Source: Candidatus Methanomethylophilaceae archaeon
GTDB lineage: Archaea > Thermoplasmatota > Thermoplasmata > Methanomassiliicoccales > Methanomethylophilaceae
DNA: 64,000 nucleotides
NCBI GenBank assembly: GCA_944320495.1
Contig: CALUHR010000001.1
Span: forward strand, 21,697 to 85,696
Direction: 5' to 3'
The notes under the pieces are model-generated. The model did no database searches. It saw only the letters and a program-made list of their open reading frames with translations, and had not been told where the DNA came from. Shown here piece after piece: positions 1 to 64,000 of the stretch. Position 1 is the first letter of the stretch. Each line of letters starts with the position of its first letter. The position numbers and the translations under genes are program-made.

Positions 1-531
1 AAGCCCTCCGCCGACGGCTACCACGCGGAGATAGCGGCGAAGCTGGCGCCGCTTATGGAGCCCAACATGCCGCTGGTGCTCCTCGGCCCCGGGTTCGAGA
101 AGGAGACCCTCTCGGAGGACCTGAAGAAGGCGGATCCGTCCGCGTTCGGCAGGATGTACGTCTACCACACCGGTCAGTGCGGGATGGCGGGGATCAACGA
201 GCTCCTCAAGGGGGGCATGGGCGCCGACGTCCTCAGGGACTCCGCGGTCGGAACGGAGATCGAGGCCGTGGAGAGGCTGATGGCCGAGATATCCAAACCC
301 AACGGCCTGGGGACCTACGGGACCCAGGAGGTGATGGACGCCGCCATGGCCGGAGCGGTCGACACGCTGCTGGTGCTCGACTCCAAGGTCCGCGAGCAGG
401 ACATGGACGACGTGGTCCGCGCCGTGGAGTCCCAGAAGGGCAGCGTCATCGTGGTCTCGGGGCAGCACGACGGCGGTCGCGCCCTCGCATCCCTGGGGGG
501 CATGGGAGCCATCCTCAGGTACCGTCTCCGA
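1..531 (+). CDS. pelA: Pelota/Dom34 mRNA surveillance (ribosome rescue) protein, 5'-truncated; ends at CGA 529-531
   Basis: eRF1 domain 2/3-like motifs (LVLLGPGFEK, GTQEV..A..GAVDTLLVLD, GGMGAILRY). The family C-terminus coincides with in-frame CGA, followed by TATA-like AT-rich sequence. Confidence 0.9.
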
Positions 532-544
532 CGTCTCGCCGAGC

Positions 545-565
545 TTATATATCGCGCATTTATAT
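545..565 (+). promoter_or_regulatory. Archaeal TATA-like boxes (TTATATA, TTTATAT) upstream of the AksA/LeuA-like gene
   Basis: AT-rich island in GC-rich DNA lying inside the apparent pelota-AksA read-through linker. Confidence 0.6.
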
Positions 566-621
566 GGCGGGTCAGCGAAGGCCGTGCCAATGCGGGCATG
601 GACCATTCGGATGGGATGCAT

Positions 622-1806
622 ATGAAGACCAAGAGCGAGGTAGTAGAACGTCTGAACGCCCCCCTCTGCATCTGCGACTCCACCCTCGGAGCCGGAGAGC
701 AGGCCGCCGGTGTGGTGTTCTCGAACATCGAGAAATACAGGATCGCGCAGCACCTGGACAACGCCGGCGTCCCCCAGCTGGAGGTCGGGAACCCGATGGT
801 GGGTACCGAGGAGAAGACCGCCGTGAAGCACATCGCCCACATGGGGCTCAGTGCATCCGTCATGTCCACCAACAGGGCGGACATCGCGGACATCAACGCC
901 AGCATCGAGTGCGACGTGGACGCCGTCTCCATCTCGCTCCCCACCTCCCAGCTCCAGATGGCCGAGATCCTCGGCAAGGACTCCAACTGGGTGCTCGACA
1001 AGGTCTTCGAGGCCGCTTCGTACGCCGCGCAGCACGGCCTCTACATCTGCTGTGTCGCGGAGGACGCCTCCAGGGCCGACCTCGGTTTCCTCATAGAATA
1101 CGCCAAGGCCGCCAAGGACGCCGGCGCCGACAGGTTCGGCTACGCGGACAGCATAGGCGTCGAGGATCCCTTCACCTGCAACGAGCGCATCAGGATGCTC
1201 AAGCAGATCTCCGGAATGGACGTGGAGATCATCACCCGCAACGACTTCGGCATGGCCACCGCGAACACCGTCGCCGCCGTCAAGGCAGGGGCCAGGTTCG
1301 CCAGGGTCACCGCGATGGGAATCGGCCCCAGGGCCGGATGTGCCCCGCTGGAGGAGGTCGTCATGGCCTCCAAGCACGTCCTCGGAATGGACACCGGCGT
1401 GGACACCGCCAAGCTCCGCCCAGTCGCCGAGTCCGTGTCCGTAGCCTCAGGCATCTCCATCTGGCCCAGCAAGCCCATCATAGGATCCAAGTGCTTCGCC
1501 CAGGAGACCGGGTTCGTCAACAACCCCGCCGTCACGGAGCCCTACGACCCCGCAGAGGTCGGAACCGAGAGGTCCCTGGTCATCGGAAAGCACTCCGTCA
1601 GGAATACCATCGTCGCCGCCATGAGCGACATGGGCATCGAGATCAGCAGGAACGATGCGGAGAACCTCCTCGTCCTCGTGAGGAAGGCCTCCTCCCAGAT
1701 GCACCGCTGCCTCAACCAGAGCGAGCTGTTCCTGCTCTACGAGGATATGATGTCCGGCAACAACACCTTCGACGACGTCCCCGTCCAGGACGCATCAGTC
1801 CAGTGA
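622..1806 (+). CDS. Homocitrate/isopropylmalate synthase (DRE-TIM, AksA/NifV/LeuA)-like protein with degenerate active site
   Basis: DSTLGAGEQ, AEDASRAD, NDFGMATAN and IGKHS motifs align with the family. Start could also be 598 or 616. Confidence 0.8.
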   Translation: MKTKSEVVERLNAPLCICDSTLGAGEQAAGVVFSNIEKYRIAQHLDNAGVPQLEVGNPMVGTEEKTAVKHIAHMGLSASVMSTNRADIADINASIECDVDAVSISLPTSQLQMAEILGKDSNWVLDKVFEAASYAAQHGLYICCVAEDASRADLGFLIEYAKAAKDAGADRFGYADSIGVEDPFTCNERIRMLKQISGMDVEIITRNDFGMATANTVAAVKAGARFARVTAMGIGPRAGCAPLEEVVMASKHVLGMDTGVDTAKLRPVAESVSVASGISIWPSKPIIGSKCFAQETGFVNNPAVTEPYDPAEVGTERSLVIGKHSVRNTIVAAMSDMGIEISRNDAENLLVLVRKASSQMHRCLNQSELFLLYEDMMSGNNTFDDVPVQDASVQ

Positions 1807-1812
1807 AACCTC

Positions 1813-1832
1813 TCCGGCCCTCCGGGGCCGGA
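1813..1832 (+). terminator. GC hairpin TCCGGCCC-TCCG-GGGCCGGA after the AksA-like gene
   Basis: Perfect 8-bp stem just after TGA. Confidence 0.55.
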
Positions 1833-1918
1833 ATTATGCTATTCCTCATGTTCTAAGGTATTAATATCTAATCAGATACCATCAACAATATAAACCGAAC
1901 CCGAAGGTCTGGCGGTCC

Positions 1919-2299
1919 ATGACCATCCTGAGGGTAAGCGAACTTATCGAATGCAAGCACATGACGAGCATACTCGCCTGTCTGTACATGCGCGGATCCA
2001 TGGGCAAGAGCGAGATCTACGACACGATCTCCAACAGCCCCAACATGGCACTGAAGCTCCGCATCCTCTCCGATGAGGGGCTGGTGGAGTCGAACCAGGT
2101 GGGGAGGCGCACCGAGTACAGTCTGACCGAGAAGGGGAGCTCCGTCGCGGAGAAGCTCTGCGGGCTGGAGGAGCTCGTCTACGGGAGGGTCGGGGACCTG
2201 AACCACCTGGAGGAGGGGACAATCCATCTGGACGGGGACGTCCCCGACGAGACCCGCGACTGGTTCGAGGACCGCAGGAGGGGCTGTTGTCCCCTGCGA
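1919..2299 (+). CDS. Winged-helix (HxlR/ArsR-like) transcriptional regulator; ends at CGA 2297-2299
   Basis: wHTH pattern (KLRILSDEGLVE...RTEYSLTEKG). CGA directly abuts the TGA of convergent paaK (2300-2302); otherwise the ORF runs 960 nt antisense into paaK. Confidence 0.8.
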
Positions 2300-3601
2300 T
2301 CACTCGTAGCTCCTGTTGTCGGTGACGTGGTTCGCCTTGCCCTCGAACCTCTCCAGGGTCCCGGGCAGCTCGAGCCTGACGTCCGCCTTGATGTTGAGGA
2401 CGCTCTTCAGACGGGCCGAGAGGGTCTTGGACATCTCGGCCAGCTTGTTCATGTCCTCGGTGAGGTACTCCTCGTTGAGCTCGACCCTGACGGTCATGGC
2501 GTCCATGTAGTTGGCGTTCTCCAGGGTGATGTGGTAGAACGGGGAGAGGAACGGCAGCTCGCCGATGACGCTCTCGATCTGGGACGGGAACACGTTGACC
2601 CCGCGGACCACGAGCATGTCGTCGGTCCTTCCCGAGATCCTCGAGAGACGAGGGTGGGTCCTGCCGCAGGCGCACTTCTCCCAGGTGATCGAGGAGATGT
2701 CCCCCATTCTGTAACGGATCAGGGGGAACGCCTCCTTCTGGAGCATGGTGACGACGATCTGTCCCTTCTCGCCCTCGGCGCAGGGCTCGTCGTTCTCGTC
2801 GAGGATCTCGACGTAGGCCAGGTCGGCCCAGACGTGGATGCCCTGCTGCTCGGAGCATTCGAGGAACATGGGTCCGGACATCTCGCTGGCCCCGTAGCAG
2901 TTGTGGACGCGGACGCCGGTCCTGTCCTGGAGCTTCCTCCTCATGCTCTCGGACCAGGGCTCGCCGCCGGCGATGGCCAGCTTGACCTTGGTGTCCCTGC
3001 GGATGTCGACGCCGATCTTGTCGCAGACGTCGGCGATGTGGAACATGTAGGAGGGCGTCCCGGCCCAGGCGGTCACGGGGAGGTCCTGCATGAGCTGGAT
3101 CTGCCTCTCGGTGTTCCCGGTGCTTATGGGCAGGACGGTGGCGCCGATCCTCTCCGCACCGTAGTGGACCCCGAGCCCTCCGGTGAAGAGGCCGTATCCG
3201 TGGAAGTTCTGGAGCATGTCCTTCTTGGTCATGCCGAAGGAGGTCATGCCCCTGGCTAGGGACTCGGTCCAGTTGTCCAGGTCCTTCTGTGTGTATCCGA
3301 CGACGGTCGGTCTGCCGGTGGTGCCAGACGAGACGTGGATCCTGGTGATGTCGTCGTAGGGGACGGTGAACAGCTTGTCCGGGTAGTTGTCCCTCAGGTC
3401 GGACTTGCGCATGAACGGGACCTTGCGGAAGGCCTCGAAGCTGTCGATGTCCTCGGGGAGTACGCCGGCCTCGCGCATCCTGTCGTGGAAGAACGGGGAC
3501 TTGTCATACATCTCGCGCACCTTGGCCTTGAGCAGGCTGAGCTGGAGCTTCTCCAGTTCCTCGCGCGGCATAGTCTCGATCCTCTCGTTCCAGAACGCCA
3601 T
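2300..3601 (-). CDS. paaK: Phenylacetate-CoA ligase (copy 1)
   Basis: SSGTTGRPT AMP-binding loop, YGLFTGGLG, YGASE, GRTDDML..RGVNVFPSQIE. Confidence 0.92.
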   Translation of the reverse strand: MAFWNERIETMPREELEKLQLSLLKAKVREMYDKSPFFHDRMREAGVLPEDIDSFEAFRKVPFMRKSDLRDNYPDKLFTVPYDDITRIHVSSGTTGRPTVVGYTQKDLDNWTESLARGMTSFGMTKKDMLQNFHGYGLFTGGLGVHYGAERIGATVLPISTGNTERQIQLMQDLPVTAWAGTPSYMFHIADVCDKIGVDIRRDTKVKLAIAGGEPWSESMRRKLQDRTGVRVHNCYGASEMSGPMFLECSEQQGIHVWADLAYVEILDENDEPCAEGEKGQIVVTMLQKEAFPLIRYRMGDISSITWEKCACGRTHPRLSRISGRTDDMLVVRGVNVFPSQIESVIGELPFLSPFYHITLENANYMDAMTVRVELNEEYLTEDMNKLAEMSKTLSARLKSVLNIKADVRLELPGTLERFEGKANHVTDNRSYE

Positions 3602-6482: not shown

Positions 6483-7061
6483 ATGGGACAGCAGGACGTC
6501 TGGGACTCGTTCTACCGCTCCAACGGCCGGGCGTGGAGGGGCAACTGCAGGATGCCGGACCCGCTGGGAGGCGGGGGCGACGCCCTCGACCTGGGGTGCG
6601 GGAGCGGCAAGAGCGTGTCCACGCTGATCGACATGGGCTACAGGGCGGTCGGCCTCGACTTCTCGGATGAGGCCGTGTCCATGTGCAGGGAGAGGTTCGG
6701 CGGGGCGGCGGAGTTCGTCTCCGGCGATGTGCTGGCACTGCCGTTCGATGACGGTTCCTTCGACTATGTGACGGCTGTCCATGTGCTCGAGCACCTGACC
6801 GACGAGGCTCTCCGTACGGCTGCGGGGGAGATCGCGAGGGTCCTGCGCCCGGGCGGATACGCCTTCGTCAGGGACTTCGCCCCGGGGGACCTGAGATCGG
6901 AATCCAGGGAGGGGTCCGACATCAGGTACATTCACCGCACCCCCGAGGAGCTGGTCTCAGCGTTCGGGGACGTGGAGGTCGTGTCGGCTGGTGTCGTGGA
7001 GGAGAAGACGCGGTTCGGGGCGGTCCGCCGCCGTTCCGAGGTCCTCCTGAGACGCAGGCGA
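6483..7061 (+). CDS. Class I SAM-dependent methyltransferase; ends at CGA 7059-7061
   Basis: LDLGCGSG motif I, VGLDFS, LPFDDGSFD, RVLRPGG. First CGA is at the fold end, followed by TATA-like CTATATG and the next ATG. Confidence 0.85.
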
Positions 7062-7112: not shown

Positions 7113-7469
7113 ATGAAGTGCCCCCGTTGTGGTCACGAGAATCCGGATGAGGTCCTCTTCTGCGAGGAGTGCGACTGGAGGGTCGACGTCCCTTACATAC
7201 CGGAGAAGAAGCGCAATCCAGTGCATTTCGCAGGCGCGACGATCGTCCTGGGACTCATCGCCGCGGTGTGCGCGTTCATGAGCGGAACCGAGCTCGTGGC
7301 ACTGGCCGTCGGAGCCATCGCCCTCATCCTGGGAGGATACTCCATGGGCGTCGCCAGACTAGTCGAGACCGACAAGACCCAGCTGTGCCTCGCCATCTCA
7401 GGTGTCGGTATGATCCTCGGGGTCCTCGGATTCCTCATCGGCTTCGCGTCCTTCGTGGGAGCGATGTGA
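7113..7469 (+). CDS. Zinc-ribbon plus three-TM membrane protein
   Basis: MKCPRCG..N...FCEEC followed by hydrophobic helices. ATG about 24 nt after the TATA-like element. Confidence 0.8.
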   Translation: MKCPRCGHENPDEVLFCEECDWRVDVPYIPEKKRNPVHFAGATIVLGLIAAVCAFMSGTELVALAVGAIALILGGYSMGVARLVETDKTQLCLAISGVGMILGVLGFLIGFASFVGAM

Positions 7470-7990
7470 TGGCAGTCTACCGCGGGAAGTACATACTCGA
7501 GGGTCTCGGAAGCATAAGCCCCGAGATGGAGCACAACCTCGACATCGCCTACGACATCTGCATGTCCTACAAGGGGGACTTCCCCTGCGAGATGTGCGGG
7601 AGGTGCTGCCACCAGCCCCACATAGTCGTGAGGCCGGAGGAGATCGACCGCGTCTCCACGGCCGCGGGCATCCCCCTTCCCGTCTTCATGACCGAGTACC
7701 TGGTACGCATGCCGGACGGAAGGTTCCTGTTCAGGAAGACCGATCCGTGCGCGTTCCTAGGGAAGGACAACAGGTGCACCATCTGGAAGGACCGTCCTCA
7801 GATCTGCGACGACTTCCCCTACGCGGTCTCGATGTTCATGAGCCGCGTGTATCTCGCGCTCACGAATCCTGACGCGGACATCATGTCCCTCATATCCTAC
7901 ATGGATGACGAGTGGCCGTGCACTCGCGTCATCAAGGCGGACATAGCCTCCAAGATAGAGGCGGCCCGCAAGGACGTCGTCGTCCAGCGA
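7469..7990 (+). CDS. YkgJ-family CxxCxxCC (Zn/Fe-chelating) protein; ends at CGA 7988-7990
   Basis: CEMCGRCC, CAFL...CTIW.DRPQIC..FP. TGATG overlap with the upstream gene. Confidence 0.82.
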
Positions 7991-8765
7991 TCGGGTGCTC
8001 CGAGAAGAAGCCGAGCAGCTCGTCCGCGTACGCGTCGAACGGTATGCCATGGCCCTGTCCCTCCAGGATGATCATCCTGCTGTCGGGGATGCGATCCGCC
8101 ACCTTGATCCCCTGCTCGCAGGGGACCATGATGTCCTCGTCGCCGTGGATGAGCAGTGTCGGTGCGGTTATTCCGAGGTCCGGCTCGCCGGAATCGTTGT
8201 CGCCGATGGCGTCCAGCTGCAGGAGGAGACCGTGCGGGTCCAGGGGCTCACGCGGCAACGGTGCGTCCCTCCCCTCGGCCTCGAACCTCCTGAACGTGGA
8301 CTCGGTCAGGCAGAACGCGTTTATCGACCTGAACAGGCACTCCATAGGGGCCCTCCCGTCCAGGACCATGCCGATCATCCCCCTCAGGACGTAATCCGAT
8401 CTGGCCGGTCTCTGGAGATAGGTCCCCACGAGGGTCAGGTCGGCGACCCTGTCGGGATGCCTGCAGGCGAGCTTTCTCGCTATGTGGGATCCCATGGACC
8501 AACCCACCACATGCGCCTTCCCGATCCCGAGTTCGTCCATGACGGCGACGGCGTCGTCCGCCATGTCGGCCATCGAGAAGGGTCCGTCGTACACGGTGTC
8601 GCCCACCCCGCGATTGTCCATCGTCACGCAGAGGCACCCATCGAGCAGAGGAGGTATCCTCCTCCAGTAGGAACCGGCGGCTCCGAACCCGGCCAGTAGG
8701 ATGACGGGCTCCCCGTCACCGGAGGTCTCGTAGCATATCCTGGCCCCGACGGATTCGGCGAACAT
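7980..8765 (-). CDS. Alpha/beta hydrolase; ends at CGA 7980-7982 (second CGA at 7977-7979)
   Basis: DNRGVG, GWSMG nucleophile elbow, IHGDED, GQGHG catalytic His near the C-terminus. Confidence 0.85.
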
Positions 8766-8836: not shown

Positions 8837-10075
8837 ATGTCCGAGTCCAAGAAGAGGATCCTTCTGATGGTCCTCGACGGTGCCGGTGACCGCGCCTGTC
8901 CCGAACTCAGGGGTCTCACCCCGTTGCAGCACGTCAGGACGCCGAACCTGGACTGGTTCGTCGAGCACGGGATCGCCGGGCTCTGCGATCCCATATCGCC
9001 CGGGGTGCGCGCCGGCAGCGACACCGCCCATCTCTCCATCCTGGGGTATGACGCCCGGGCCGTGTACACCGGCAGGGGTCCTTTCGAGGCCATCGGGGCG
9101 GGTGTGGACATACAGCCCGGCGATGTGGCGTTCAGATGTAACTTCGCCACCGTCAACAGCGACATGGAGATCCTGGACCGCAGGGCAGGCAGGATAAGGG
9201 AGCCTGAGACGGAACAGCTCGCCGAGGCGCTGGACGGCATAGAGATAGACGGGATCGAGTGCTCGGTCCACGCCGGAACGGAGCACAGGGCGGTGCTCGT
9301 CCTGAGGGGGGACGGGCTTTCGCCCGATGTCACGGACTGCGATCCGGGGGAGGACTCCCATCTGCTCAGGTGTGAGCCGCTCACCGAGGAGGCGCAACTC
9401 ACCGCGGACGTCGTCAACGGATTCCTGGACGAGGCCTACGAGAGGCTAAGGTCTCACACCGTCAACAGGAAGAGGTCCGCCGCCGGCCTCCCTCCGGCCA
9501 ACATTCTGGTCCCCCGTGGGGCTGGCGGATATCCCGACATCGAGTCGTTCCAGGAGAAGTACGGCATCAGCGCAACCTGCGTTGCCGGTGTCGGTCTCGT
9601 CAAGGGCATATGCAAGGTCTGCGGACTGGACGTCTATCCGCTCCCGCCAGTCTGCGACGGGGGCATGGACTCTGATCTCATCATGAAGATGGAGGGAGTC
9701 CTCGAAGCTCTCGAGGAGTACGATTTCGTCCTGATGAACATCAAGGCCCCGGACGTGGCGGGGCATGACGGCGACGCCAAGGCGAAGAGCGAGGTCATCA
9801 AGCGTATAGACGCGGCGGTGGGATTCTTCCGTTCCAGGATGCCTGAGGACCTGGTCGTCGTGATTACCTGCGACCACTGCACCCCGTGCTCGCTCCAGGA
9901 CCATAGTGGCGATCCGGTGCCCATAGCGTTCTACACCCAGGGCATGATCTGGGACGATGCCGGGGAGTTCAGCGAGACCGGATGCTCCAGGGGCATGGTC
10001 GGGAGGATCAGGGCGACAGACATCATCCCGATCTGCATGGACCTGGCAAACCGCACGTCGAAGTTCGGATCGTGA
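8837..10075 (+). CDS. apgM: 2,3-bisphosphoglycerate-independent phosphoglycerate mutase (archaeal type)
   Basis: LDGAGD, TPLQ..TPNLD, GSDTAHL, PDVAGHDG, TCDHCTP, HSGDPVP. Confidence 0.92.
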   Translation: MSESKKRILLMVLDGAGDRACPELRGLTPLQHVRTPNLDWFVEHGIAGLCDPISPGVRAGSDTAHLSILGYDARAVYTGRGPFEAIGAGVDIQPGDVAFRCNFATVNSDMEILDRRAGRIREPETEQLAEALDGIEIDGIECSVHAGTEHRAVLVLRGDGLSPDVTDCDPGEDSHLLRCEPLTEEAQLTADVVNGFLDEAYERLRSHTVNRKRSAAGLPPANILVPRGAGGYPDIESFQEKYGISATCVAGVGLVKGICKVCGLDVYPLPPVCDGGMDSDLIMKMEGVLEALEEYDFVLMNIKAPDVAGHDGDAKAKSEVIKRIDAAVGFFRSRMPEDLVVVITCDHCTPCSLQDHSGDPVPIAFYTQGMIWDDAGEFSETGCSRGMVGRIRATDIIPICMDLANRTSKFGS

Positions 10076-10522
10076 GCACAGGCCCAGTTGTACCGTGAGG
10101 CTACCTCCTGTGGTGACCGGGACCGTCAGTCCCGCCGAGATGTCCGGTGTTCCGTAACCGTCCCCGATGCTCGTCCCCAGGACGTCACCGGATGGTGCCG
10201 AGAACGACAGATCCAGCAGATACGGTCTCCCCTTGCAGAAAGCATCCAGAGACTCCTCGAGATATTCCAGCGCCTCGCCCTTTCCCGTGACCAGGGACAG
10301 AGCCGCCATGTCGGACAGGCGGACCAGCGTGTCGTCCCCCTCCGACATGTCCGACATGCGGACCTTGGAGGACATCACGTCCTCCAGGAACCCGTAGGCG
10401 TCCCTGTCGTCATCCGCACCGGTGTCCGCGACCTGGGTGACCACGGAGGCCGCGATCATTATGACGAAGATGAACAGCATGGCGTCGACCATGGCGACGA
10501 ATCCGCGGTCGCTCGTGCGCAC
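10070..10522 (-). CDS. Pilin-like protein with class III signal-type N-terminus; GTG start, ends at CGA 10070-10072
   Basis: MRTSDRG|FVAMVDAMLFIFVIMIAASVV. CGA lies immediately past the convergent apgM TGA. Confidence 0.65.
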
Positions 10523-10920
10523 AGGACCACCTCGAACACCGCGAGCACCTCCCTGCCGCCGTCGCACCCTATCACGGACGTGACCGACCTCGACCACGGC
10601 GAGCCGTCGGTGGACCCGATCACGAAGGGCCCCGTCGCCTCGCAGAACCCCCCGGGCACGGTCACTGTGACGGAGGCGCCGGAAAGGCCCCTGGACCCCA
10701 GATACCTCTCGATATAATCCTGAAACGCGGGGATAAACTCCCCGTCGACGATCTCTCCCGTGATTCTGTCGGGATCAAGCCCCTCGGTGGGGTCCGACGT
10801 GATACCTGCCGCGCCGACCGCCAGTCCGAGGAATGCCGTCAGCACGAGGATGACGGCCATCGCGGCTATCATCGACTCCAGGAATCCCATGTCGCCCCTG
10901 TCGTCCGCATACATGGTCAC
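10513..10920 (-). CDS. Pilin-like protein with class III signal-type N-terminus; ends at CGA 10513-10515
   Basis: DDRG|DMGFLESMIAAMAVILVL. CGA lies 5 nt past the GTG of the next gene. TATA-like GGTTATATG upstream. Confidence 0.65.
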
Positions 10921-13080: not shown

Positions 13081-13593
13081 ATGGAATCCAAATTCGGATT
13101 GGACAGGCTGTTCGGGCATTCGGAGGAGCCCCCTCCGGCAGAGGTCTGCGACGACCTCCTGACGATTGACTGCAGGGGATGCGGGTACGCACCCGTCCCC
13201 GGGTCCAGGGAGTGCCTTGGATGCATGGTGGAGAGGATGAGCGCCGTAGGCGGCGCGGACAGGCTGATCCTCCGCACCGGGAGGGACACCGAGATATCCG
13301 GCAGGGCGGGCATGGCCGTCAGGGAGGCGGCTTCGCTTAGGCGTTGGTCGATGCCCCAGGAGCCTCCCAAGGGGCGCTGCAGGGCATGTCCGGTGTCTAG
13401 GCATGGGATCCTCTCCCGCGCGTGGGAGCGCTTCCCGGAGGGCATGACGGACGGTCTGGCGGAGGAGGCTCTGTCGCAGGTCCCGGAGAGGGACGGGTGC
13501 AGGGAGTGTGTGGAATCCACCGTTCGCGCCCTCGCGCAGCTGGACGAGGGCATGGCGGAGATCCTCTCCAAGATGACTGGTGGTCTGCCATGA
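13081..13593 (+). CDS. Cys-rich (CxxC x4) protein coupled to the pilus ATPase
   Basis: CRGC, CLGC, CRAC, CREC motifs. ATG 13081 fits TATA ATTATAAT at 13051-13058. ATGA overlap with the next gene. Confidence 0.7.
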   Translation: MESKFGLDRLFGHSEEPPPAEVCDDLLTIDCRGCGYAPVPGSRECLGCMVERMSAVGGADRLILRTGRDTEISGRAGMAVREAASLRRWSMPQEPPKGRCRACPVSRHGILSRAWERFPEGMTDGLAEEALSQVPERDGCRECVESTVRALAQLDEGMAEILSKMTGGLP

Positions 13594-20422: not shown

Positions 20423-20650
20423 TTCTCTCCCCCCGATGATTCCTCTCTTTTCGTTCGAGCCCAAGGTAACTTTTCCCCCTATTAAGGTCCAACGTGGATT
20501 ATGCATCCATCCATTATAAATTGGTGTGCAGATGTCGACAATGGACTGTTCTTTGTTAAGCTATGAGCTAGATTATTCCATAAATGTCTGAAATCAGACG
20601 ATTTTCGGCGGAAACAAGGCGATAGAGGAGGGGGAGGGACCCCCATCCCG

Positions 20651-48987: not shown

Positions 48988-49073
48988 TGGTGTCGGAGAG
49001 GGGATTCGAACCCCTGAACCACTAAGGACAGGATCCTAAGTCCTGCATCTTTGGCCTGCTTGATTACCCCGAC
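48988..49073 (-). tRNA. tRNA-Leu, anticodon UAG, encoded CCA
   Basis: Acceptor GTCGGGG/CTCCGAC-A-CCA, anticodon stem CAGGA/TCCTG with loop CT-TAG-GA, variable arm, GGTTCGAATCC T-arm. Confidence 0.95.
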
Positions 49074-52151: not shown

Positions 52152-53966
52152 ATGTCGGATCTACTGTCAGACGGGGGGAGGAGACTCCTCCTGGGGAACG
52201 AGGCTATCGTCCGCGGTCTGTTCGAGGCGGGCGCAGGATTCGCCTCCACGTATCCCGGGACCCCCTCCTCCGAGATCGGGAACCTCCTGGAGGCCCTGTC
52301 CGCGGACGCGGGCATGTACTTCGAGTTCTCCGATAACGAGAAGGTGGCGATGGAGGTCTCCGCCGCCGCCGCATCCGCGGGGGTACGCTCGTTCGTTTTC
52401 ATGAAGCACGTCGGCCTCAACGTCGCGGCCGACCCGATGATGACCCTGGCCTACTCCGGTGTCAGGGCGGGCATGCTCATCCTCACCGCCGACGACCCGT
52501 CGGCCCACAGCTCCCAGAACGAGCAGGACAACAGGTTCTACGCGAAGCTGTCCCTCCTGCCGATGGTGGAGCCTTCCACACCGATGGAGGCCAAGGCCAT
52601 GGTCCCGGAGGCCTACCGCATCTCCGAGGAGCTCGGCCTGCCGGTGATCTTCAGGACCACCACCAGGGTCAACCACGCCCGTGCTCCCGTCGAGTTCGGC
52701 CAGAGGGCCGAGCCCAGAACCAAGGGCCATTTCGACAGGGACTTCGTCCGCTTCGTCAACATCCCCGCCAACGCGAGGGTCAACAGGAAGAGGCTCCTCC
52801 AGCTCAACGAGAGGGCCCTGGAGATGTCCGAGTCCTCCAGCCTCAACTTCGTCGAGGGCGAGGGGGACGTCGGCGTGATCACCTCCGGCGTGTCCTACAC
52901 CTACGTGAAGGAGGCACTGAAGGGCGTCTCCATCCTGAAGCTAGGATTCACGCATCCCGTGCCCGAGAGGATGGTGGCCGACTTCGTCCGTGGCAAGAAG
53001 TCCATCATCGTCGTGGAGGAGCTCGACCCGTACCTGGAGGACGAGGTCCTCAGGATCTGCGCCCAGAACGGCCTCTCGGTCCCCGTCTTCGGGAAGAGGT
53101 CCGGACACCTCCCCTATGCATGGGAGTACTCGCCGGACACCCTGAAGGGCGTGGCCGATATCGCCGAAGTGACGGAGTTCAGGGAGCCCATGCCCCAGCC
53201 GGACATCAAGCTCCCGGCTAGGCCCCCGACGCTGTGCGCCGGATGCCCCCACAGGGGTATCTTCGCGGCCACCAAGAGGGCAGTCGGCAACAGGGACGTC
53301 GTCTACTGCTCGGACATCGGATGCTACACCCTCGGCGGTTCCCCGCCGTTCAACGAGGCCGACTTCATCATCTGCATGGGAGGCGGCGCCGGAGCTGCCG
53401 GAGGATTCGCCCAGACCACCGACCAGCTGCCCATAGCGTTCATGGGAGACTCCACGTTCTTCCATTCCGGTGTCAACCCGCTGATCAACGCCCTGTTCAA
53501 CGATCACAAGATCGTCATGGTGGTGCTCGACAACCGCACCACCGCCATGACCGGGCACCAGCCCAACCCCGGCACCGGCAGGGAGTTCGGAGGGATCACC
53601 ACCGAGCCCCTGGACATCGAGGCCATCGCCCGCGGGGTGGGGGCCAAGTTCGTCAGGACCGTGGATCCCTACGATGTGAAGGCCGCCACCGAGGTCATGA
53701 AGGAAGCGATTGAGTACGACGGCGTCGCCGTCGTGATCTCCAAGCAGGCCTGCCCCCTGGAGCTCAAGAAGCGCAGGATGCTCGCCGCGAGGACCTGCGA
53801 GGTGGACCAGGAGCTGTGCATCCAGTGTTTCAACTGCCTGCGCACCATAGCATGTCCGGCGCTGATCAAGAGGGACGGTCTCGTGGAGACCGATCCCACC
53901 CAGTGCATCGGGTGCGGCATGTGTGCGAACGTCTGTCCCAAGCACGCCATAGGGGTGAAGAAGTGA
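52152..53966 (+). CDS. iorA: Indolepyruvate:ferredoxin oxidoreductase alpha subunit
   Basis: GNEAI, YPGTPSSE, MKHVGLNVAAD, RPPTLCAGCPHR, SDIGC, GDSTFFHSG, 2x[4Fe-4S] C-terminus. Confidence 0.95.
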   Translation: MSDLLSDGGRRLLLGNEAIVRGLFEAGAGFASTYPGTPSSEIGNLLEALSADAGMYFEFSDNEKVAMEVSAAAASAGVRSFVFMKHVGLNVAADPMMTLAYSGVRAGMLILTADDPSAHSSQNEQDNRFYAKLSLLPMVEPSTPMEAKAMVPEAYRISEELGLPVIFRTTTRVNHARAPVEFGQRAEPRTKGHFDRDFVRFVNIPANARVNRKRLLQLNERALEMSESSSLNFVEGEGDVGVITSGVSYTYVKEALKGVSILKLGFTHPVPERMVADFVRGKKSIIVVEELDPYLEDEVLRICAQNGLSVPVFGKRSGHLPYAWEYSPDTLKGVADIAEVTEFREPMPQPDIKLPARPPTLCAGCPHRGIFAATKRAVGNRDVVYCSDIGCYTLGGSPPFNEADFIICMGGGAGAAGGFAQTTDQLPIAFMGDSTFFHSGVNPLINALFNDHKIVMVVLDNRTTAMTGHQPNPGTGREFGGITTEPLDIEAIARGVGAKFVRTVDPYDVKAATEVMKEAIEYDGVAVVISKQACPLELKKRRMLAARTCEVDQELCIQCFNCLRTIACPALIKRDGLVETDPTQCIGCGMCANVCPKHAIGVKK

Positions 53967-55867: not shown

Positions 55868-56295
55868 GTTGTTTCCCATCCCTTGGTTTCTTCACTTGAG
55901 TGCAGCGTTCCTCTGTGCGGTCCTGAAGGAGTCGGCTACCGCCTCCTCCTCGACCGTCGCAGGCACGATCCTGTCCAGGACGCACTTGCGGACGAACTCC
56001 TCCTCGCTCAGGCATATGCCGCGCTGGACGAGGCCCTGGAGAGCGTCCATCTGGAGGTCGCTGAAGCGGACGAAGATCCCGCTTCCAGACGCGACGGTTC
56101 CACCGTTCCTCTGGGAGTCGATGTATCCCTTGATCGCGTCGCGGATGAAGTCGGACCTGTTGCCGATGTCATGCTCATCCATGAAGTCCTCCATCATCTG
56201 GATGACCTCCGGTCCCATCCTGAGCGTGACCTTGGTTCCTTCGTCCGTCATTCTCCATCCCTTTCCTCGCAAGAGAGAGTTGTTTCCCATCCCTT
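55868..56295 (-). repeat. Two exact 17-bp direct repeats AAGGGATGGGAAACAAC (55868-55884, 56279-56295)
   Basis: Read directly. One copy lies in each leader of the RHH and FtsZ-like genes. Confidence 0.85.
55892..56251 (-). CDS. Ribbon-helix-helix (CopG/CdrS-like) regulator
   Basis: KVTLRM...MEDFM......NRSDFIRDAI. Upstream of the FtsZ-like gene. ATG 56251 follows an in-frame CGA. Confidence 0.85.
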   Translation of the reverse strand: MTDEGTKVTLRMGPEVIQMMEDFMDEHDIGNRSDFIRDAIKGYIDSQRNGGTVASGSGIFVRFSDLQMDALQGLVQRGICLSEEEFVRKCVLDRIVPATVEEEAVADSFRTAQRNAALK

Positions 56296-56687: not shown

Positions 56688-59570
56688 ATGACCGACTACG
56701 GTAGCATGGAGGCCAAATGGCAGGCACGCTGGCAGGAGGCGGGCCTCGACAAGGCCGAGAGGATTGACGGCAAGCCCAAGTTCATGATCATATTCGCCTA
56801 CCCCGGCGTTACGGGGTATCTCCACGTCGGACATCTGCGCGGCTACACGTACGTCGATGCCATCGGCAGATACAAGCGCATGACGGGCTACAACGTACTC
56901 TTCCCCGTGGGAACCCATGCCACCGGCAACGGAGGCATCAGCCTCGCCACCAAGATCGCCCGCAGGGACGAGAAGACCATAGATTACCTCCTCAGGAACG
57001 GATGCCCGGAGGACAAGATCCCCGAGCTCGAGAAGCCGATGTCCGTCATCGAGTTCTTCAACGACGTGTACGTCAACGAGTACTGGAAGAGATTCGGCTT
57101 CCTTGCTGACTGGAGGAGGTTCACCTGCACCCTGTACCCGGACTACGGCAAGTTCATACAGTGGCAGTTCCACAAGCTCAAGGATGCCGGTCTGCTGATT
57201 CAGAAGCCCTACTACGCGCCGTTCTGCCCCAACTGTGGGCCGGTAGCCGTCGATCCCTCCGAGACAGACATCTCCAAGGGCGGAAGGGCTGAGACGCAGG
57301 AGTACACCCTGCTCAAGTTCAGGCACGGCGATGAGTTCCTCGTGGCCGCCACCCTCAGGCCCGAGACCGTGTACGGCCAGGTATGCTTCTGGGTCAATCC
57401 CGAGGTGGAGTACAGGAGGATCAGGAAGGACGGCGAGACATGGATCGTCTCCCCGCAGGCCGCCGAGAAGCTGACCCTCCAGAAGGACGGCATCGAGGAG
57501 GTCGGCACCATACCCGGCTCCGAGATGATCGGCTGGATGTGCGAGGCCCCCATGATCCACCGCGAGATCCCCGTGTTCCCCGCGTCGTTCTGCAACCCCG
57601 ATGTCGGCACCGGGCTGGTCACCTCCGTTCCGTCCGACGCACCCGACGACTGGATCTCCCTCGAGGCGGTCAAGAAGGACCCTTCCCTGAAGGAGAAGTA
57701 CGGACTCACCCAGGAGCTGATCGACTCCGTCGTTCCGATATCGATCATCGACATCAAGGGATACGGAGACTTCCCGGCCAAGGACATGATCGAGCGCCTG
57801 GGCATCACCGCGCCCGGAGACCCGAAGCTCGTGGAGGCCAAGAAGCAGGTCTACAAGGACGGCTACCACATGGGCCGCATGAAGGACGTCTGCGGAGAGT
57901 TCGCCGGCATGCGCGTCGATGAGGCCAAAGACAAGATGCGCCAGGCCATGATCGACGCCGGCGAGGCCGAGCCCTTCCACGACCTCTCGGAGGAGGTTGT
58001 CTGCAGGTGCGGCGCCCGCGTCCACATCAGGAGGATCGACGACCAGTGGTTCATCAACTACGGCGATGCAGACCTGACGGAGAGGACCAAGGCCCACGCC
58101 AAGGAAATGGACCTCAACCCGCCCGAGTTCTCAGAGAACGTGCAGGGCATCCTGGACTGGTTCAGGGAGAGGGCCTGCGTCAGGCTGGGCAACTGGCTCG
58201 GGACCAGGTTCCCCTTCGATGAGAAGTGGATCATCGAGGCCATCTCAGACTCCACGCTCTATCCCATCTACTACACGATCTCGCTCTACGCCAATGACCA
58301 CAGGATCGAGCCCGAGCAGATGACCTTGGAGTTCTTCGACTACGTGGTGCTCGGAAAGGGCGACATCTCCGGTGTGTCCAAGTCCACCGGCGTGTCCGAG
58401 GAGCTTCTGGACAGGATCAGGAAGGACGTCCTCTACTGGTATCCGCTGGACATCAACCTGGGCGGCAAGGAGCACATGACCGTCCACTTCCCGGCGTTCC
58501 TGTTCAATCACATGGCCATCCTGCCCGACGAGATGCAGCCCCGCGGCATCACCGTCAACTGGTATGTCACCGGCAAGAACAGCGACAAGATCTCCAAGTC
58601 CAAGGGAGGGGCCCAGCCCATCCCCGGCGCGGCGGCCAAGTTCGGCGTCGACGCCATGCGCCTCTACTACGCCCACGTCGCATCCATGTTCGTGGACGTG
58701 GAGTGGAGCGAGGAGACCGTCCTAACCTACAGGCAGAGGGTCGACAGGGTGTTCGGCGCCGTCACGGAGCTCATCTCCAGGGAGTCCGATGCCCCGGCCG
58801 GCGAGATCGACGCCTGGCTGCTCTCCAGGTTCAACCGCCATCTCGCCGAGATCCGCACCGCCATGGAGAGGTACGACCTGAGGCAGATGTGCACCACCGT
58901 CTACTTCGACATGCTCAACGACATCCGCTGGTACACTAGACGCGGAGGCTCCTGCAGGGCCACCATCGATGCCGCCCTGAGGATCTGGATACAGGCCATG
59001 ATGCCCGTCACACCACACACCGCCGAGGAGCTGTGGGAGAGCGCCGGGTTCGACGGGCTCGTGTCCGCCGGTCAGCTGCCGGAGCCCGACAGGTCCGTCA
59101 TCTCCGCCGCGTCAGAGCACGGTGAGGACATGATCCGCGACGTGATGTCCGACATCACCGAGATCAGGAAGATCGCCGGCATCGAGGCGAAGCGCGTCGT
59201 GCTGTACACGTCCCCGGAGTGGAAGAGGGAGGTCATGAGGCGTGCGGCCGCCATGCGCGAATCCGGTGAGCTCAGCGTCCCCGCCCTCACCAAGGCGTGC
59301 ATGACCGACGAGGCCATCAAGAGGAACGGGAAGGCCGCATCCGAGCTCGCCAAGAAGGTCGCCATCGACTTCTCCAGGTCCGAGTCCGGCGCCTGGGAGC
59401 CCGTGTACTCCACCGACGAGTTCGCCCTGCTCGACGGCGCCAAGGGATTCCTGTCCGATGAGATCGGTCTCGAGGTCGACGTGCTCTCCGCCGATGCGGA
59501 GGACGTCTACGACCCTCAGAAGAAGGCCAGGGCCGCCGCCCCCGGAAGGCCCGCCATCCTGCTGGAGTGA
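56688..59570 (+). CDS. leuS: Leucyl-tRNA synthetase (archaeal type)
   Basis: FAYP..TGYLHVGH (HIGH-like), LRPET, GTGLVTSVPSDAPDD editing domain, KISKSKG (KMSKS-like). Confidence 0.96.
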   Translation: MTDYGSMEAKWQARWQEAGLDKAERIDGKPKFMIIFAYPGVTGYLHVGHLRGYTYVDAIGRYKRMTGYNVLFPVGTHATGNGGISLATKIARRDEKTIDYLLRNGCPEDKIPELEKPMSVIEFFNDVYVNEYWKRFGFLADWRRFTCTLYPDYGKFIQWQFHKLKDAGLLIQKPYYAPFCPNCGPVAVDPSETDISKGGRAETQEYTLLKFRHGDEFLVAATLRPETVYGQVCFWVNPEVEYRRIRKDGETWIVSPQAAEKLTLQKDGIEEVGTIPGSEMIGWMCEAPMIHREIPVFPASFCNPDVGTGLVTSVPSDAPDDWISLEAVKKDPSLKEKYGLTQELIDSVVPISIIDIKGYGDFPAKDMIERLGITAPGDPKLVEAKKQVYKDGYHMGRMKDVCGEFAGMRVDEAKDKMRQAMIDAGEAEPFHDLSEEVVCRCGARVHIRRIDDQWFINYGDADLTERTKAHAKEMDLNPPEFSENVQGILDWFRERACVRLGNWLGTRFPFDEKWIIEAISDSTLYPIYYTISLYANDHRIEPEQMTLEFFDYVVLGKGDISGVSKSTGVSEELLDRIRKDVLYWYPLDINLGGKEHMTVHFPAFLFNHMAILPDEMQPRGITVNWYVTGKNSDKISKSKGGAQPIPGAAAKFGVDAMRLYYAHVASMFVDVEWSEETVLTYRQRVDRVFGAVTELISRESDAPAGEIDAWLLSRFNRHLAEIRTAMERYDLRQMCTTVYFDMLNDIRWYTRRGGSCRATIDAALRIWIQAMMPVTPHTAEELWESAGFDGLVSAGQLPEPDRSVISAASEHGEDMIRDVMSDITEIRKIAGIEAKRVVLYTSPEWKREVMRRAAAMRESGELSVPALTKACMTDEAIKRNGKAASELAKKVAIDFSRSESGAWEPVYSTDEFALLDGAKGFLSDEIGLEVDVLSADAEDVYDPQKKARAAAPGRPAILLE

Positions 59571-59574: not shown

Positions 59575-60030
59575 ATGTTCATAGACATCGCTCGCTCCAG
59601 GCACAGCTGCAGGTCCTACACGGAGGCGCCCCTGTCGGACGAGCAGGTCCGCCTGATTATGGAGGCCGGCGAGCTCGCCCCCTCCTCCAGGGACCTCCAT
59701 CCAGTGAGGCTCATCCCCGTGTCGGACATCCCGACGATCAGGAGGCTGGCCGGATGCAAGGACCATGGCGCCGAGCCCCTGCGCGGGGCGACCTTCGCCG
59801 TCGTCGTTGCAGCAGACGAGGGGAAGGCCGACACATGGCTGGAGGACGCATCAATCGCATCCATTATGATGCAGCTGGAGGCGGAGGACCTCGGGATCGG
59901 CTCGTGCTGGATCCAGATCCACCTCAGGTCCCTGGGCGACCGTCCCGCGGAGGACGTCGTCAGGGAGATCATGGGTCTGGAGGACGGCACCAGGGTGCTG
60001 TCCGTCATCTCCTTCGGAAGGAAGGCATGA
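59575..60030 (+). CDS. Nitroreductase family protein
   Basis: RHSCRSY, LAPSS, DASIA, LGIGSCWI. Confidence 0.9.
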   Translation: MFIDIARSRHSCRSYTEAPLSDEQVRLIMEAGELAPSSRDLHPVRLIPVSDIPTIRRLAGCKDHGAEPLRGATFAVVVAADEGKADTWLEDASIASIMMQLEAEDLGIGSCWIQIHLRSLGDRPAEDVVREIMGLEDGTRVLSVISFGRKA

Positions 60031-60548
60031 TCGTCGAGCCCCTGCATCCCCAGGACGTCGAGGCCGCTCGGTCGCTGTATCTGGATGCGTTCCCGGAGTA
60101 CGAGCGCGCGGAATGGGAAGCTCTCGTCAACAATTCGGGATGGGGGGATGCAGAGCTGCTCGGGATATACGATGCCGGCCTTGCGGGCATCTCGTATGTG
60201 ATATTCGACGAGACGTTCCTCTTCGTCCTCTATCTCGCCATCGAACCCTCCCGCAGGGGGACGGGCGTGGGCTCCGGGGCATTACGCATCATCGAGAGCA
60301 TGTATTCCCATGGCAGGACATTCCTCAACGTAGAGCCCACGGACGAGGCCTGCGACAATCCCGAGCAGCGTTTACGCAGGGTGGCCTTCTACGAGCGCTG
60401 CGGTTACTCCGCAGCATGGAAGCTCGTCATCGACGAGAACGAGAAGTACACGGTCATGTGCAAAGGGGTCCCGATAACCCCTGACGAGATGGAATCCTTC
60501 AGGGTCAGGCACGGCTTCTCAAGACTGTTCGGGCATCAGGGGGAACGA
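60027..60548 (+). CDS. GNAT acetyltransferase; ends at CGA 60546-60548
   Basis: YLAIEPSRRGTGVGS, RRVAFYERCGY. ATGA overlap at the start. Confidence 0.85.
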
Positions 60549-60555
60549 TCCGACG

Positions 60556-61104
60556 TCGTTTCCATCTCTCATACAGTGAGTGCTCGATCCCGACCTGGTC
60601 CAGGCACCTGCCCACGACTATGTCCACGATGTCGCTGACGGTCCTGGGTCTGGGATAGAACCCCGGGTTGGCATCGACGATCGTGACGCCCAGTCTAGCG
60701 AGCTTCAGTTCGTTCTCCAGCATGATGGCGCTCTTGGGCGTCTCCCTGACCAGCAGGACGAGCCTCCTGTTCTCCTTTATGCACACCGATGCCGCACGGG
60801 ATATGAGGGTGTCGGCTATGCCGTTGGCGAACTTGGCAACGGAAGATTCGCTGCACGGGGCGACGAACATCGCTTCGTAGCGGAAGCTTCCGGATGCGAT
60901 AGAGGCGAACATCTCGTCGTCGGAGAAGACCTGGTCGGCCATGGACTCGACCTGTTCGACCGTGTAGTCGGTCTCGGCGGGGATGATCTCCCTGGCGGTG
61001 CGGGACATGACGAGTATCCTCTCGCCCTTCAGCTCCTGAAGGAGCCTTATCCCGTAGATGGCACCGGATGCGCCCGATATGGCGACGACGTACCTCACGA
61101 CCAT
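60556..61104 (-). CDS. ubiX: Flavin prenyltransferase; ends at CGA 60556-60558
   Basis: ISGASGAIYG, IASGS, APCS, RAA.V.IKE.R.LVL..RETP, PGFY, terminal RW. Confidence 0.92.
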
Positions 61105-61230
61105 CACCATGGCCATGGCGTAGAAAACTGTTAGGGTCCGAAGCGATAGAGGGCTCGTTCCCCCCCCCCCCATATAATTACGTATTATACTTCGGTTCGC
61201 GTTAAGAAACCTCAATCGGTTGTATTATGC

Positions 61231-62247: not shown

Positions 62248-62311
62248 TACTGAAAATGCCGGCATCCGTAGGGGGATGCCGGCGGAATAAACGGGAACAC
62301 CCGGTGGACGG

Positions 62312-63307
62312 TCAGTCCATTGCCGAGTTTATCGCAATTTCCCCTATGTCCATGGAGTACTCGGCGATCCTCTTGACGGAGCTGGCGATGAGCTCCGCTG
62401 CCATAGCGGACTTGCCAGTGAGGTCGTCGGCCATCGCGCTGATGTCCCTGGAGCGTCTGACGAGGTCCTCCCCGCGCTCGATGCATGCGTTGGCCTTGTC
62501 CATGTCCTTGGATGACCAGGTACCGACGGAGTCGACCATCAGGGTGATGACCTCCCTGCCGGTGGAGAGTATGTCGTCGTCCAGGCTGCTGGGGTCATCG
62601 ATAAGAGGCCTCAGGTTGGATGCGAGAAGCACGGCGTGGTCACCGATCCTCTCGAGGGCGCGGCTGATGCTGCCGCAGCGGGAGATCTCGCAGAGGTCCA
62701 TGCCCATGCGGCGGGAGATGGTTATGTCCTTCTGGTGGATGTTGACCTGGCGTGAGATGAGCCAGTCTATCCTGTCCACCTCGCGGTCCCTGTCGGACAT
62801 GCCGTCCAATAGTCTGATGTCCTTGTTTTCGAGGCCGTCCATGGTGTCGGTCAGCATGTTGCGAACGAGCACCTTCATCCTCTCGACGGATTTGGCAGGC
62901 TTCATCTCGCCCTGGTCCATAAGGTCCTTGATGACGATGCTGTTGTCGCTCTCTTCCATTATCTCCAGACCGATGGCGGTCTGTGCGAAGGAGGAGGCGG
63001 CAGAAGCGGCCATGCTTGAGAGTCCCGATTCCGATTTGAGCACGATGGAGTCATGTCCCGCGATGTATGCTCCGACGAGCTTCCTGTAGAGGAAGTCCCT
63101 GTCGGTGATACCGTCAGCCTCGATGACCTTGACGGAAGCCGCGGATGCGGTCTGCTCCCCGCCGGGGTAAATCACCATGCTGCCGTCAGGCTGGGGCTGC
63201 AGTCCGACGGTGTCGTTCTTCTTCAGTCCGACGGAATCGGCCCAGTCCTTCGGCAGCGTGATCATGAAGGAGGAGCCACCGGTAATCTGAATCTTCCTTA
63301 GGTCCAT
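62312..63307 (-). CDS. phoU: Archaeal phosphate-uptake regulator PhoU with N-terminal AbrB/SpoVT domain
   Basis: RKIQITGGSSFMITLPKDW, DREVDR, LERIGDHA, KRIAEY. Confidence 0.9.
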   Translation of the reverse strand: MDLRKIQITGGSSFMITLPKDWADSVGLKKNDTVGLQPQPDGSMVIYPGGEQTASAASVKVIEADGITDRDFLYRKLVGAYIAGHDSIVLKSESGLSSMAASAASSFAQTAIGLEIMEESDNSIVIKDLMDQGEMKPAKSVERMKVLVRNMLTDTMDGLENKDIRLLDGMSDRDREVDRIDWLISRQVNIHQKDITISRRMGMDLCEISRCGSISRALERIGDHAVLLASNLRPLIDDPSSLDDDILSTGREVITLMVDSVGTWSSKDMDKANACIERGEDLVRRSRDISAMADDLTGKSAMAAELIASSVKRIAEYSMDIGEIAINSAMD

Positions 63308-63339
63308 ATGCTCCCTACCGGATTTCATCTTTATCATTA

Positions 63340-63740
63340 TAAAGATAATTAATAGAGTATATATTATAATATATTGACTATATATTCATCAAGGAATCAA
63401 GAGCACAACATATCGGGATGATCGAATCGGATTTTGCAAAGGTCATGTATATGCACTTATCAACGATTATGTCCGATATTATCTCAGGAACCATTATCCA
63501 TTATAGAGTCCAATATGATTTGAAAATACAGAGAATGGTACACAGTTGGATTAGATACCATAATGATAATAGAAAAATATCCACAAATATCTGATTTATT
63601 TATAAACAACGGATCTCGCTTATAAAACCCAATATGTATTCTAAGTACAATATGTATAATTACATATTATCTATATCTATACAAATAAATCAATATAATA
63701 AATCGGCTAACTATATACCAAGAACCGAGGTAGCGGGATA
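63340..63740. promoter_or_regulatory. Very AT-rich divergent phoU/pstS control region
   Basis: Multiple TATA-like runs (TATATTATAATATATT, TTATAAAA); GAGGTG RBS at 63743-63748. Confidence 0.6.
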
Positions 63741-63756
63741 TTGAGGTGTCACTACC

Positions 63757-64000
63757 TTGGACAAAAAGATAACCGCAATCATTGTGGTCGTCATCATAAT
63801 CGTTGCAGCCGCTGCCGTCTATGTAGGCTTCGGAGGAAGCAACGACGGAAACGATGATGGCAACTCTGATGTTCATGCCGTCACCCTCGATGGTGTCGTC
63901 GCTTCCGAGGACAACGTCCTCAACGGAACCTACCCCATCCAGAGGAACCTGATCGTCTGCACCCTTGGCGAGCCCACCGGCAACGTCAAGAACTTCATCG
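63757..64000 (+). CDS. pstS: Phosphate ABC transporter substrate-binding protein, 3'-truncated
   Basis: TM anchor then LDGVVASEDNVLNGTYPIQRNL..TLGEPTG.VKNFI. Divergent from phoU. Confidence 0.7.
   Translation, partial: MDKKITAIIVVVIIIVAAAAVYVGFGGSNDGNDDGNSDVHAVTLDGVVASEDNVLNGTYPIQRNLIVCTLGEPTGNVKNFI

Follow-up and report, generated by a model that had tools for sequence, protein, structure and literature searches.

The window analysed here is a stretch of 64,000 nucleotides (nt) of an archaeal genome (G000, C1:21697-85696; 1.77 Mb in 14 contigs, 61.6% GC, assembly completeness 90.6%), and this study concerns the codon CGA, at which 18 of its 60 genes close. Pfam profiles, from which we took gene names and domain ends, identify a class I tRNA synthetase, a ribonucleotide reductase, FttA/aCPSF1, PheT, an IorA-type protein, a peptidase U32, PurB, a MatE protein and an NAPRTase. 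Genes were called with our own codon-model caller, written in Python, under translation table 11 and then again with CGA as a stop; their 5' ends were trimmed at the maximal coding score. We used as comparators the syntenic regions of two genomes of the same genus (G004 and G008), plus 872 kb of G008 for orthologue pairs. An out-of-family genome with the standard code (G018, 800 kb used) served as control, and we also examined a stretch (C1:800001-1200000) of G033 (48% GC), which represents a sister genus within the same family. tRNA genes were scored with the Rfam tRNA model.

All 18 CGA terminators of the window were verified on the sequence (Table 1). When CGA was treated as a stop, the number of open reading frames (ORFs) of at least 100 amino acids in the window fell from 216 to 125, and all long genes remained intact. 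Seven CGA-ended genes that are hidden or fused in the table-11 ORF map then appeared, of which six have clear Pfam matches (ETF alpha, HxlR, methyltransferase, CxxCxxCC, DUF2085 and GNAT). The seventh (10070-10522) has none, and is therefore the weakest of the window set. Six of the 18 terminators would, if read through, add 135 to 424 codons across neighbouring genes. For example, under table 11 the aPelota gene is fused in frame with the next gene (424 extra codons), and the ETF alpha gene, whose start codon forms an ATGA overlap with the TGA stop of gene 37538-38311 upstream, gains 167 codons across 36018-36491. The ATG that follows the T2SSE-type ATPase gene, at 15340, gives an overlap of 8 nt if CGA stops and of 134 nt under table 11, and a stop at 31916-31918 abolishes a convergent overlap of 104 nt with 31929-33068. 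In purB the 29-codon tail is of low complexity, and the next small ORF begins at a CGATG overlap.

Since gene models closed at CGA contain no internal CGA by construction, the independent support for gene ends at this codon comes from orthologue alignments and from Pfam domain ends. Among 398 orthologue pairs of G000 and G008, 68 meet CGA first in G000. The standard stop of G008 lies at the identical codon in 26 of these 68 pairs (25 TGA, 1 TAA) and within two codons in 50; by comparison, pairs with standard stops on both sides have them at the identical codon in 183 of 330 cases and within two codons in 271. The orthologue ends in G018 gave a similar picture with fewer pairs. In the window, the CGAs at 529, 10513, 15345, 16726, 29720 and 60556 have a TGA or TAA at the exact codon in G004, G008 or both, and at 7980 the stop of the relatives lies within a few codons, not exactly in both. 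The Pfam profiles eRF1_3, ADSL_C, Flavoprotein, Acetyltransf_2, ETF_alpha and DUF2085 finish at the CGA (Table 1). Before the first in-frame CGA, the GC content at third codon positions is 0.83-0.89 and the coding log-odds are +0.2 to +0.37, versus 0.55 and -0.67 after it, and the sequence past CGA looks non-coding in composition. The coding score in G018 runs across CGA without such a drop (0.18 versus 0.20). CGA thus stands at 3' ends where the relatives have TGA or TAA, which argues for a terminator and not for an unused or unassigned codon.

The interiors of genes are almost devoid of CGA, as the sequence-only reading of the window had claimed. Under table 11, leuS, nrdJ, aCPSF1/FttA, pheT and iorA hold no in-frame CGA. 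The 60 CGA-closed models of the window (19,499 codons) contain 706 AGG, 393 CGC, 82 AGA, 58 CGT, 22 CGG and no CGA, where 12 to 23 CGA would be expected from the A-ending share of the other four-fold boxes (2.5-10%). The same 60 genes carry 1,674 out-of-frame CGAs, 1,355 at offset 2 and 319 at offset 1. A count that is free of our own gene models, taken genome-wide in G000 at gene-internal positions where the alignment to G008 has conserved flanks, returned 3943 AGG, 2300 CGC, 337 AGA, 331 CGT, 120 CGG and 2 CGA, i.e., two CGAs among about 7,000 aligned Arg codons. The depletion is hence specific to the codon and the rest of the CGN box is retained, again as proposed from the letters alone. 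Conserved internal CGA reaches neither the rate of CGG (2 versus 120) nor that of G018, with about 1.15 (1.1-1.2) CGA per 1000 mid-gene codons. In G008, of 53.6% GC, we counted 0.06 per 1000 mid-gene codons, or 0.5% of the CGN box, while the A-ending share of the other four-fold boxes is mostly 11-27% (4-6% for CC and CT, 46% for GG). The sister genus has 0.15 per 1000 mid-gene codons (1.2% of CGN) and few CGA gene ends, which suggests that the rarity of CGA preceded its capture as a stop; with a normal 31-39 pair in its tRNA-Arg(UCG) and CGT at the key site of its aRF1 gene (see below), it may represent a pre-capture state.

CGA had also been described as a mark of spurious N-terminal extensions. 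Such extensions are real: ten window ORFs carry in-frame CGA in their 5' over-extensions (six are given in Table 1), and 5' extensions genome-wide hold 23 CGA per 1000 codons. The association is not restricted to N-termini, as CGA closes the 3' ends of the 18 genes. After start trimming, the table-11 ORFs of the window retain 19 in-frame CGAs, nearly all within the last ~45 codons; therefore the ORF track over-extends at 3' ends as well. Genome-wide, CGA is 12 times as frequent in the ten final codons as in the interior of genes, a stronger enrichment than that of any other rare codon. Two simpler accounts of the distribution were rejected. Our first reading was ordinary codon bias: across the genome, CGA made up 3.7% of the Arg codons of untrimmed ORFs, and the 19 CGAs observed in the window matched the 19.2 expected at the rate of the whole genome. 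It was dropped because the CGAs are almost confined to 5' extensions and 3' tails. Non-coding admixture in tails from gene overlaps leaves the sharp boundary at CGA unexplained, and no such boundary was found in the control G018.

Genome-wide, gene models rose from 1,397 under table 11 to 1,670 with CGA as a stop, of which 406 (24%) end at CGA. CGA-ended genes have weaker codon bias, and their share in the most codon-biased class of genes is 15%. Across the 1,670 models TGA accounts for 71% of stops, CGA for 24%, TAA for 53 genes (3%) and TAG for 19 (1%); the low use of TAG would fit a lineage that uses pyrrolysine. Among same-strand junctions, 49 of 241 after CGA are -1 overlaps (CGATG), and 235 of 879 after TGA are -4 overlaps (ATGA). 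The next in-frame standard stop comes sooner after CGA than after TGA (median 12 versus 19 codons), and tandem stops are more frequent (9% versus 3.9%; p=1.7e-4). Like the weaker codon bias of CGA-ended genes, such back-up stops would suit leaky termination at CGA. The base following the terminator is T in 48% of CGA and 26% of TGA ends, partly owing to the CGATG overlaps; this base does not cleanly separate terminator CGAs from the in-frame sites that are retained, which are followed by CTN or GAY. Convergent pairs are separated by a median of 3 nt with a CGA terminator versus 47 nt with TGA. The small gap may arise from serine TCG codons at gene ends, which are CGA on the opposite strand, or from a gene-calling artefact. 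At 7980-7990 the window has a convergent pair of CGA-ended genes (7466-7990 and 7980-8765) that overlap by 11 nt.

Table 1. Features of the window that bear on CGA and, in the last four rows, loci elsewhere in G000. Relatives are the same-genus genomes G004 and G008.
Feature	Coordinates	Strand	CGA	Pfam match	Remarks
aPelota gene, 3' part (start outside window)	1-531	+	end, 529-531	eRF1_3 3-106/106, stops at the residue before CGA	G008 TAA at same codon; G004 TGA one codon later
HMGL-like (homocitrate/isopropylmalate synthase type)	622-1806	+		HMGL-like 3-260/260	Separate gene only if CGA 529-531 is a stop
HxlR-like regulator	1919-2299	+	end, 2297-2299	HxlR	Table-11 ORF 319 codons longer, across convergent 2300-3601
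Methyltransferase	6483-7061	+	end, 7059-7061	Methyltransf_11 1-94/95	
CxxCxxCC-domain gene	7466-7990	+	end, 7988-7990	CxxCxxCC	
Alpha/beta hydrolase	7980-8765	-	tandem CGA CGA end, first at 7980-7982	Abhydrolase_1 to 243/245	G004 TGA 4 codons earlier; G008 TGA at homologous codon by projection (alignment stops 4 codons before CGA, then 4 sense codons and TGA)
Small gene	10070-10522	-	end, 10070-10072	none	Table-11 ORF 207 codons longer
Small gene	10513-10920	-	end, 10513-10515		TGA at exact codon in G004 and G008
T2SSE-type secretion ATPase	13590-15347	+	end, 15345-15347	T2SSE	G004 TGA at same codon; G008 TGA one codon later
Gene without Pfam match	15340-16728	+	end, 16726-16728	none	TAA 3 codons on; G008 TGA at same codon; G004 also CGA
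DUF2085 membrane protein	16809-17264	+	end, 17262-17264	DUF2085 1-89/90	
Methyltransferase	17248-17970	+	end, 17968-17970		No orthologue in the DNA of relatives compared
TPR-repeat gene	29720-30346	-	end, 29720-29722	TPR	TGA at exact codon in G004 and G008
Arylamine N-acetyltransferase family	31178-31918	+	end, 31916-31918	Acetyltransf_2 6-236/240, to residue 240/246	
Electron-transfer flavoprotein (ETF) alpha	36480-37541	-	end, 36480-36482	ETF; ETF_alpha 2-80/81	
purB (adenylosuccinate lyase)	44372-45739	+	end, 45737-45739; 5' over-extension, codons 19 and 32	ADSL_C 1-78/79, to residue 441/455	
MATE transporter	50739-52085	+	end, 52083-52085; 5' over-extension, codons 8 and 35	MatE	TAA 10 codons on
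GNAT acetyltransferase	60027-60548	+	end, 60546-60548	Acetyltransf_1 6-116/116	
UbiX-type flavoprotein	60556-61116	-	end, 60556-60558	Flavoprotein 2-161/162	TGA at exact codon in G004 and G008
leuS-type class I tRNA synthetase	56688-59570	+	none in frame	class I tRNA synthetase	960 codons
nrdJ	18185-20506		none in frame	ribonucleotide reductase	
aCPSF1/FttA	24053-25957		none in frame	FttA/aCPSF1	
Long gene	26039-28909		none in frame		
pheT	34349-36007		none in frame	PheT	
iorA	52152-53966		none in frame	IorA-type	
Peptidase U32			5' over-extension, codons 9 and 22	U32	
pncB			5' over-extension, 5 CGAs	NAPRTase	
ORF	39863-40960		5' over-extension, 3 CGAs		
ORF	55892-56290		5' over-extension, 1 CGA		
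tRNA-Leu(UAG)	48988-49073	-			Only tRNA gene in the window
tRNA-Arg(UCG)	C13:413317-413388				Rfam tRNA 55.7 bits
aRF1	C2:85933-87195	-	one in frame, 20 codons past NIKS		
Ribosomal protein eL18	C13:191557-191952	-	in frame, at the IW-R-D arginine		
Fused NifH-like/Oxidored_nitro (nitrogenase-component-1-like)	C5:79781-81961	-	in frame, residue 301, between the two domains	NifH-like; Oxidored_nitro	

The expectation of a tRNA-Arg set lacking the UCG anticodon proved wrong: all five Arg anticodons are present in G000, UCG included. We found the tRNA-Arg(UCG) gene in 12 of the 13 genus genomes checked, with compensatory changes in its stems. Its anticodon arm is unusual. The 31-39 pair is an A.A or C.A mismatch in nine genomes of the genus, and a subclade of three has C33, at a position where U is universal in tRNA. 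The gene has C31-G39 and U33 in eight genomes outside the genus. Such an abnormal anticodon arm would be expected to weaken the decoding of CGA.

An unbiased scan of aligned internal CGAs returned three conserved sites where the codon is retained in frame. The first lies in aRF1, the sole eRF1-type gene besides Pelota. In all 13 genus genes examined it contains exactly one CGA, at the same Arg and in the context (G/T)CT CGA CTN, through which the reading frame stays open, so that no frameshift is needed. Outside the genus this site is mostly CGC, CGT, CGG, AGG or AGA, with CGA elsewhere in the gene, and two genomes of other genera (G052 and G023) carry CGA at the same codon. The second site, in the ribosomal protein eL18, is kept in 11 of 12 genus genomes (the other has CGT) and is present in two outgroup genomes. 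The third, at the junction of the fused NifH-like/NifD-like gene, is shared by the G008 orthologue; partial termination there would give the NifH-like part alone plus the fusion protein. CGA does not have the attributes of an unassigned codon, as its tRNA exists and these three in-frame CGAs are conserved. Changes next to the NIKS motif of aRF1 (A before SNIKS; M in KxTMK, R-to-M) seemed genus-specific when compared with six other families. They turned out to be family-wide, present in other genera whose aRF1 genes have CGA as a sense codon, and we did not use them as evidence. The GRGTE loop of aRF1, the counterpart of the eukaryotic GTS loop, is GRSTE (G-to-S) in G000 alone and GRGTE in all other genomes examined.

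These comparisons of sequences make it probable that CGA acts in this genus as a leaky stop codon, and most likely as a fourth stop that the only release factor, aRF1, recognises. Termination at CGA would compete with the retained but altered tRNA-Arg(UCG), and this tRNA would be kept because a few essential genes preserve a conserved in-frame CGA (aRF1, eL18 and the NifH-like/NifD-like junction). When aRF1 is abundant, its own synthesis would be cut short at codon 78 of the protein, and when it is scarce the tRNA would read through, giving a negative feedback. TGA and CGA are one T-to-C change apart, and CGA stops would therefore multiply under GC pressure, in keeping with the 19-24% of CGA-ended genes at 62% GC versus a few per cent in the congener at 54% GC. 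Downstream genes are coupled to CGA through CGATG in the way that they are to TGA through ATGA. We lean, with more reserve, towards the full scheme of a genuine fourth stop, in which aRF1 is set against a weakened tRNA-Arg(UCG) and senses its own level through its in-frame CGA, and in which the ribosomal protein and the enzyme junction use the same leaky codon.

Several points weigh against this interpretation. The whole case is comparative and compositional, and the zero internal CGA in CGA-closed models is built in. CGA can still be decoded as Arg, because the cognate tRNA is kept, with its compensatory stem changes. We found no genus-specific substitution in the codon-recognition motifs of aRF1, NIKS and YRCDS being intact, and no eRF1/aRF1-type factor is known whose normal activity includes codons that begin with C. 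The conserved CGA of eL18, an essential and highly expressed protein whose synthesis has to pass through this codon, is awkward for efficient termination at CGA and argues that termination is not always efficient.

The competing explanations, even taken jointly, seem rather improbable. The one that survives best holds that CGA is unassigned, or very slowly decoded by a crippled tRNA, and that stalled ribosomes are resolved by rescue (aPelota/ABCE1, or an unspecific aRF1) without true recognition of the codon. The anticodon arm of tRNA-Arg(UCG) is indeed abnormal in every genus genome where the gene was found, no genus-specific change was found in the recognition motifs of aRF1, back-up stops are enriched after CGA, and yeast eRF1/eRF3 can reportedly act on a slowly decoded CGA (PMC7379694). 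Yet it would be costly for a quarter of the genes to depend on the rescue of stalls, and CGATG coupling at 20% of the same-strand junctions resembles ordinary termination-reinitiation. The single conserved CGA of aRF1 also points to a release factor that senses this codon. Hence, we regard rescue as unlikely.

A second possibility, which we find more doubtful still, is that CGA is merely an extremely rare Arg codon, and that TGA stops mutated to CGA under GC pressure have left tails that are translated and tolerated. This would agree with the presence of tRNA-Arg(UCG), with the rarity of all A-ending codons in G000, and with a paralogue test in which 14 of 42 CGAs aligned to R. Those matches, however, are mostly reciprocal CGA-CGA ends, 5' extensions or the conserved junction site. 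Mere rarity does not account for the roughly 60-fold deficit of CGA relative to CGG at the aligned internal positions, nor for its 0.5% share of CGN in the congener of 54% GC, where A-ending shares in most other boxes are 11-27%. Tolerated tails would have to extend up to 424 codons across neighbouring genes, and downstream genes start at CGATG overlaps.

It is very improbable that the code is standard and that C-to-U editing of the mRNA turns CGA into UGA. CGA and TGA are one transition apart and interchange at orthologous gene ends, as editing would predict, but it would have to hit in-frame CGAs only, with the 1,674 out-of-frame CGAs of the window genes at risk if it were unselective, and to spare those of aRF1 and eL18; we know of no such editing system in archaea. 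An artefact of assembly, binning or base calling deserves next to no weight: the metagenome-assembled genome is in 14 contigs and 90.6% complete, but the pattern is specific to codon and frame, common to independent genomes of the genus (one of them a single contig), and coupled to conserved features of the tRNA and of aRF1.

Full-text searches of the literature returned no report of a CGA stop in Methanomassiliicoccales or Methanomethylophilaceae. If our interpretation is true, this genus would provide the first example outside organelles of a sense codon turned into a stop, with built-in dual decoding, and the termination machinery could capture a sense codon in a cellular genome of ~1,700 genes. 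A natural route would then lead from a very rare codon, through a weakened tRNA, to the conversion of TGA stops into CGA by GC pressure. It would also bear on how eRF1-type factors discriminate the first base of the codon. The standard annotation of these gut methanogens would be wrong for about a quarter of the genes, with tails added, neighbours fused and overlapping genes missed. Tools for code inference that consider only amino acids are blind to such a change, and Codetta-type methods are unable to infer a stop (10.64898/2026.04.02.715157).

The likeness to known systems is partial in each case. In organellar codes, sense codons have become stops: AGA/AGG in vertebrate mitochondria (NCBI table 2), UCA in Scenedesmus (table 22) and UUA in Thraustochytrium (table 23). 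Green-algal examples are treated in PMC6821328 and PMC12574857. In this archaeon too, a former sense codon is gone from gene interiors and ends reading frames. Those organelles have tiny genomes with a handful of genes and have lost the cognate tRNA, whereas this is a free-living archaeon with ~1,700 genes and ~400 CGA ends that retains the tRNA and conserves in-frame CGA at a few sites. The aRF1 gene recalls that of bacterial release factor 2 (prfB), which is autoregulated through an in-frame UGA and requires a +1 frameshift. Both would hold a conserved in-frame codon at which their own factor terminates, giving the negative feedback predicted above; unlike in prfB, the frame of aRF1 continues, and escape would come from readthrough by tRNA-Arg(UCG) and not from a frameshift.

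The context-dependent stop/sense codons of the ciliates Condylostoma and Parduczia (PMC4967479) likewise give one codon two apparent outcomes, which in our case are termination where genes end and an amino acid at a small number of internal positions. In those ciliates, standard stops became mostly sense and nearness to the 3' end of the mRNA decides; in the archaeon the change ran from sense to mostly stop, and the mRNAs are polycistronic. The misdecoding of CGA by yeast eRF1/eRF3 (PMC7379694) is another case of an eRF1-type factor acting on CGA, a codon that resembles UGA; in yeast this is reportedly a side-reaction of rescue on a slowly read codon and not, as proposed here, the normal end of genes. 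Two archaeal assemblies from hydrothermal vents have CGG reassigned to Trp and no CGA in hidden Markov model (HMM) domains (Melnykov 2026, bioRxiv 10.64898/2026.04.02.715157). That study raised a CGA stop as a possibility and left gene ends untouched. CGA is absent from conserved domains in both cases, but the vent archaea belong to another lineage, lack tRNA-UCG and have reassigned CGG; in the genus studied here CGG stays Arg, the tRNA is kept, and the gene ends were mapped against orthologues. Finally, Codetta uncovered the reassignment of CGA/CGG to Trp in Absconditabacteria, as well as other reassignments of Arg codons (PMC8629427). The codon affected is once more CGA, which had first become rare, but those changes are sense-to-sense and occurred in low-GC bacteria, whereas in this archaeal genus a rare Arg codon would have passed from sense to stop.

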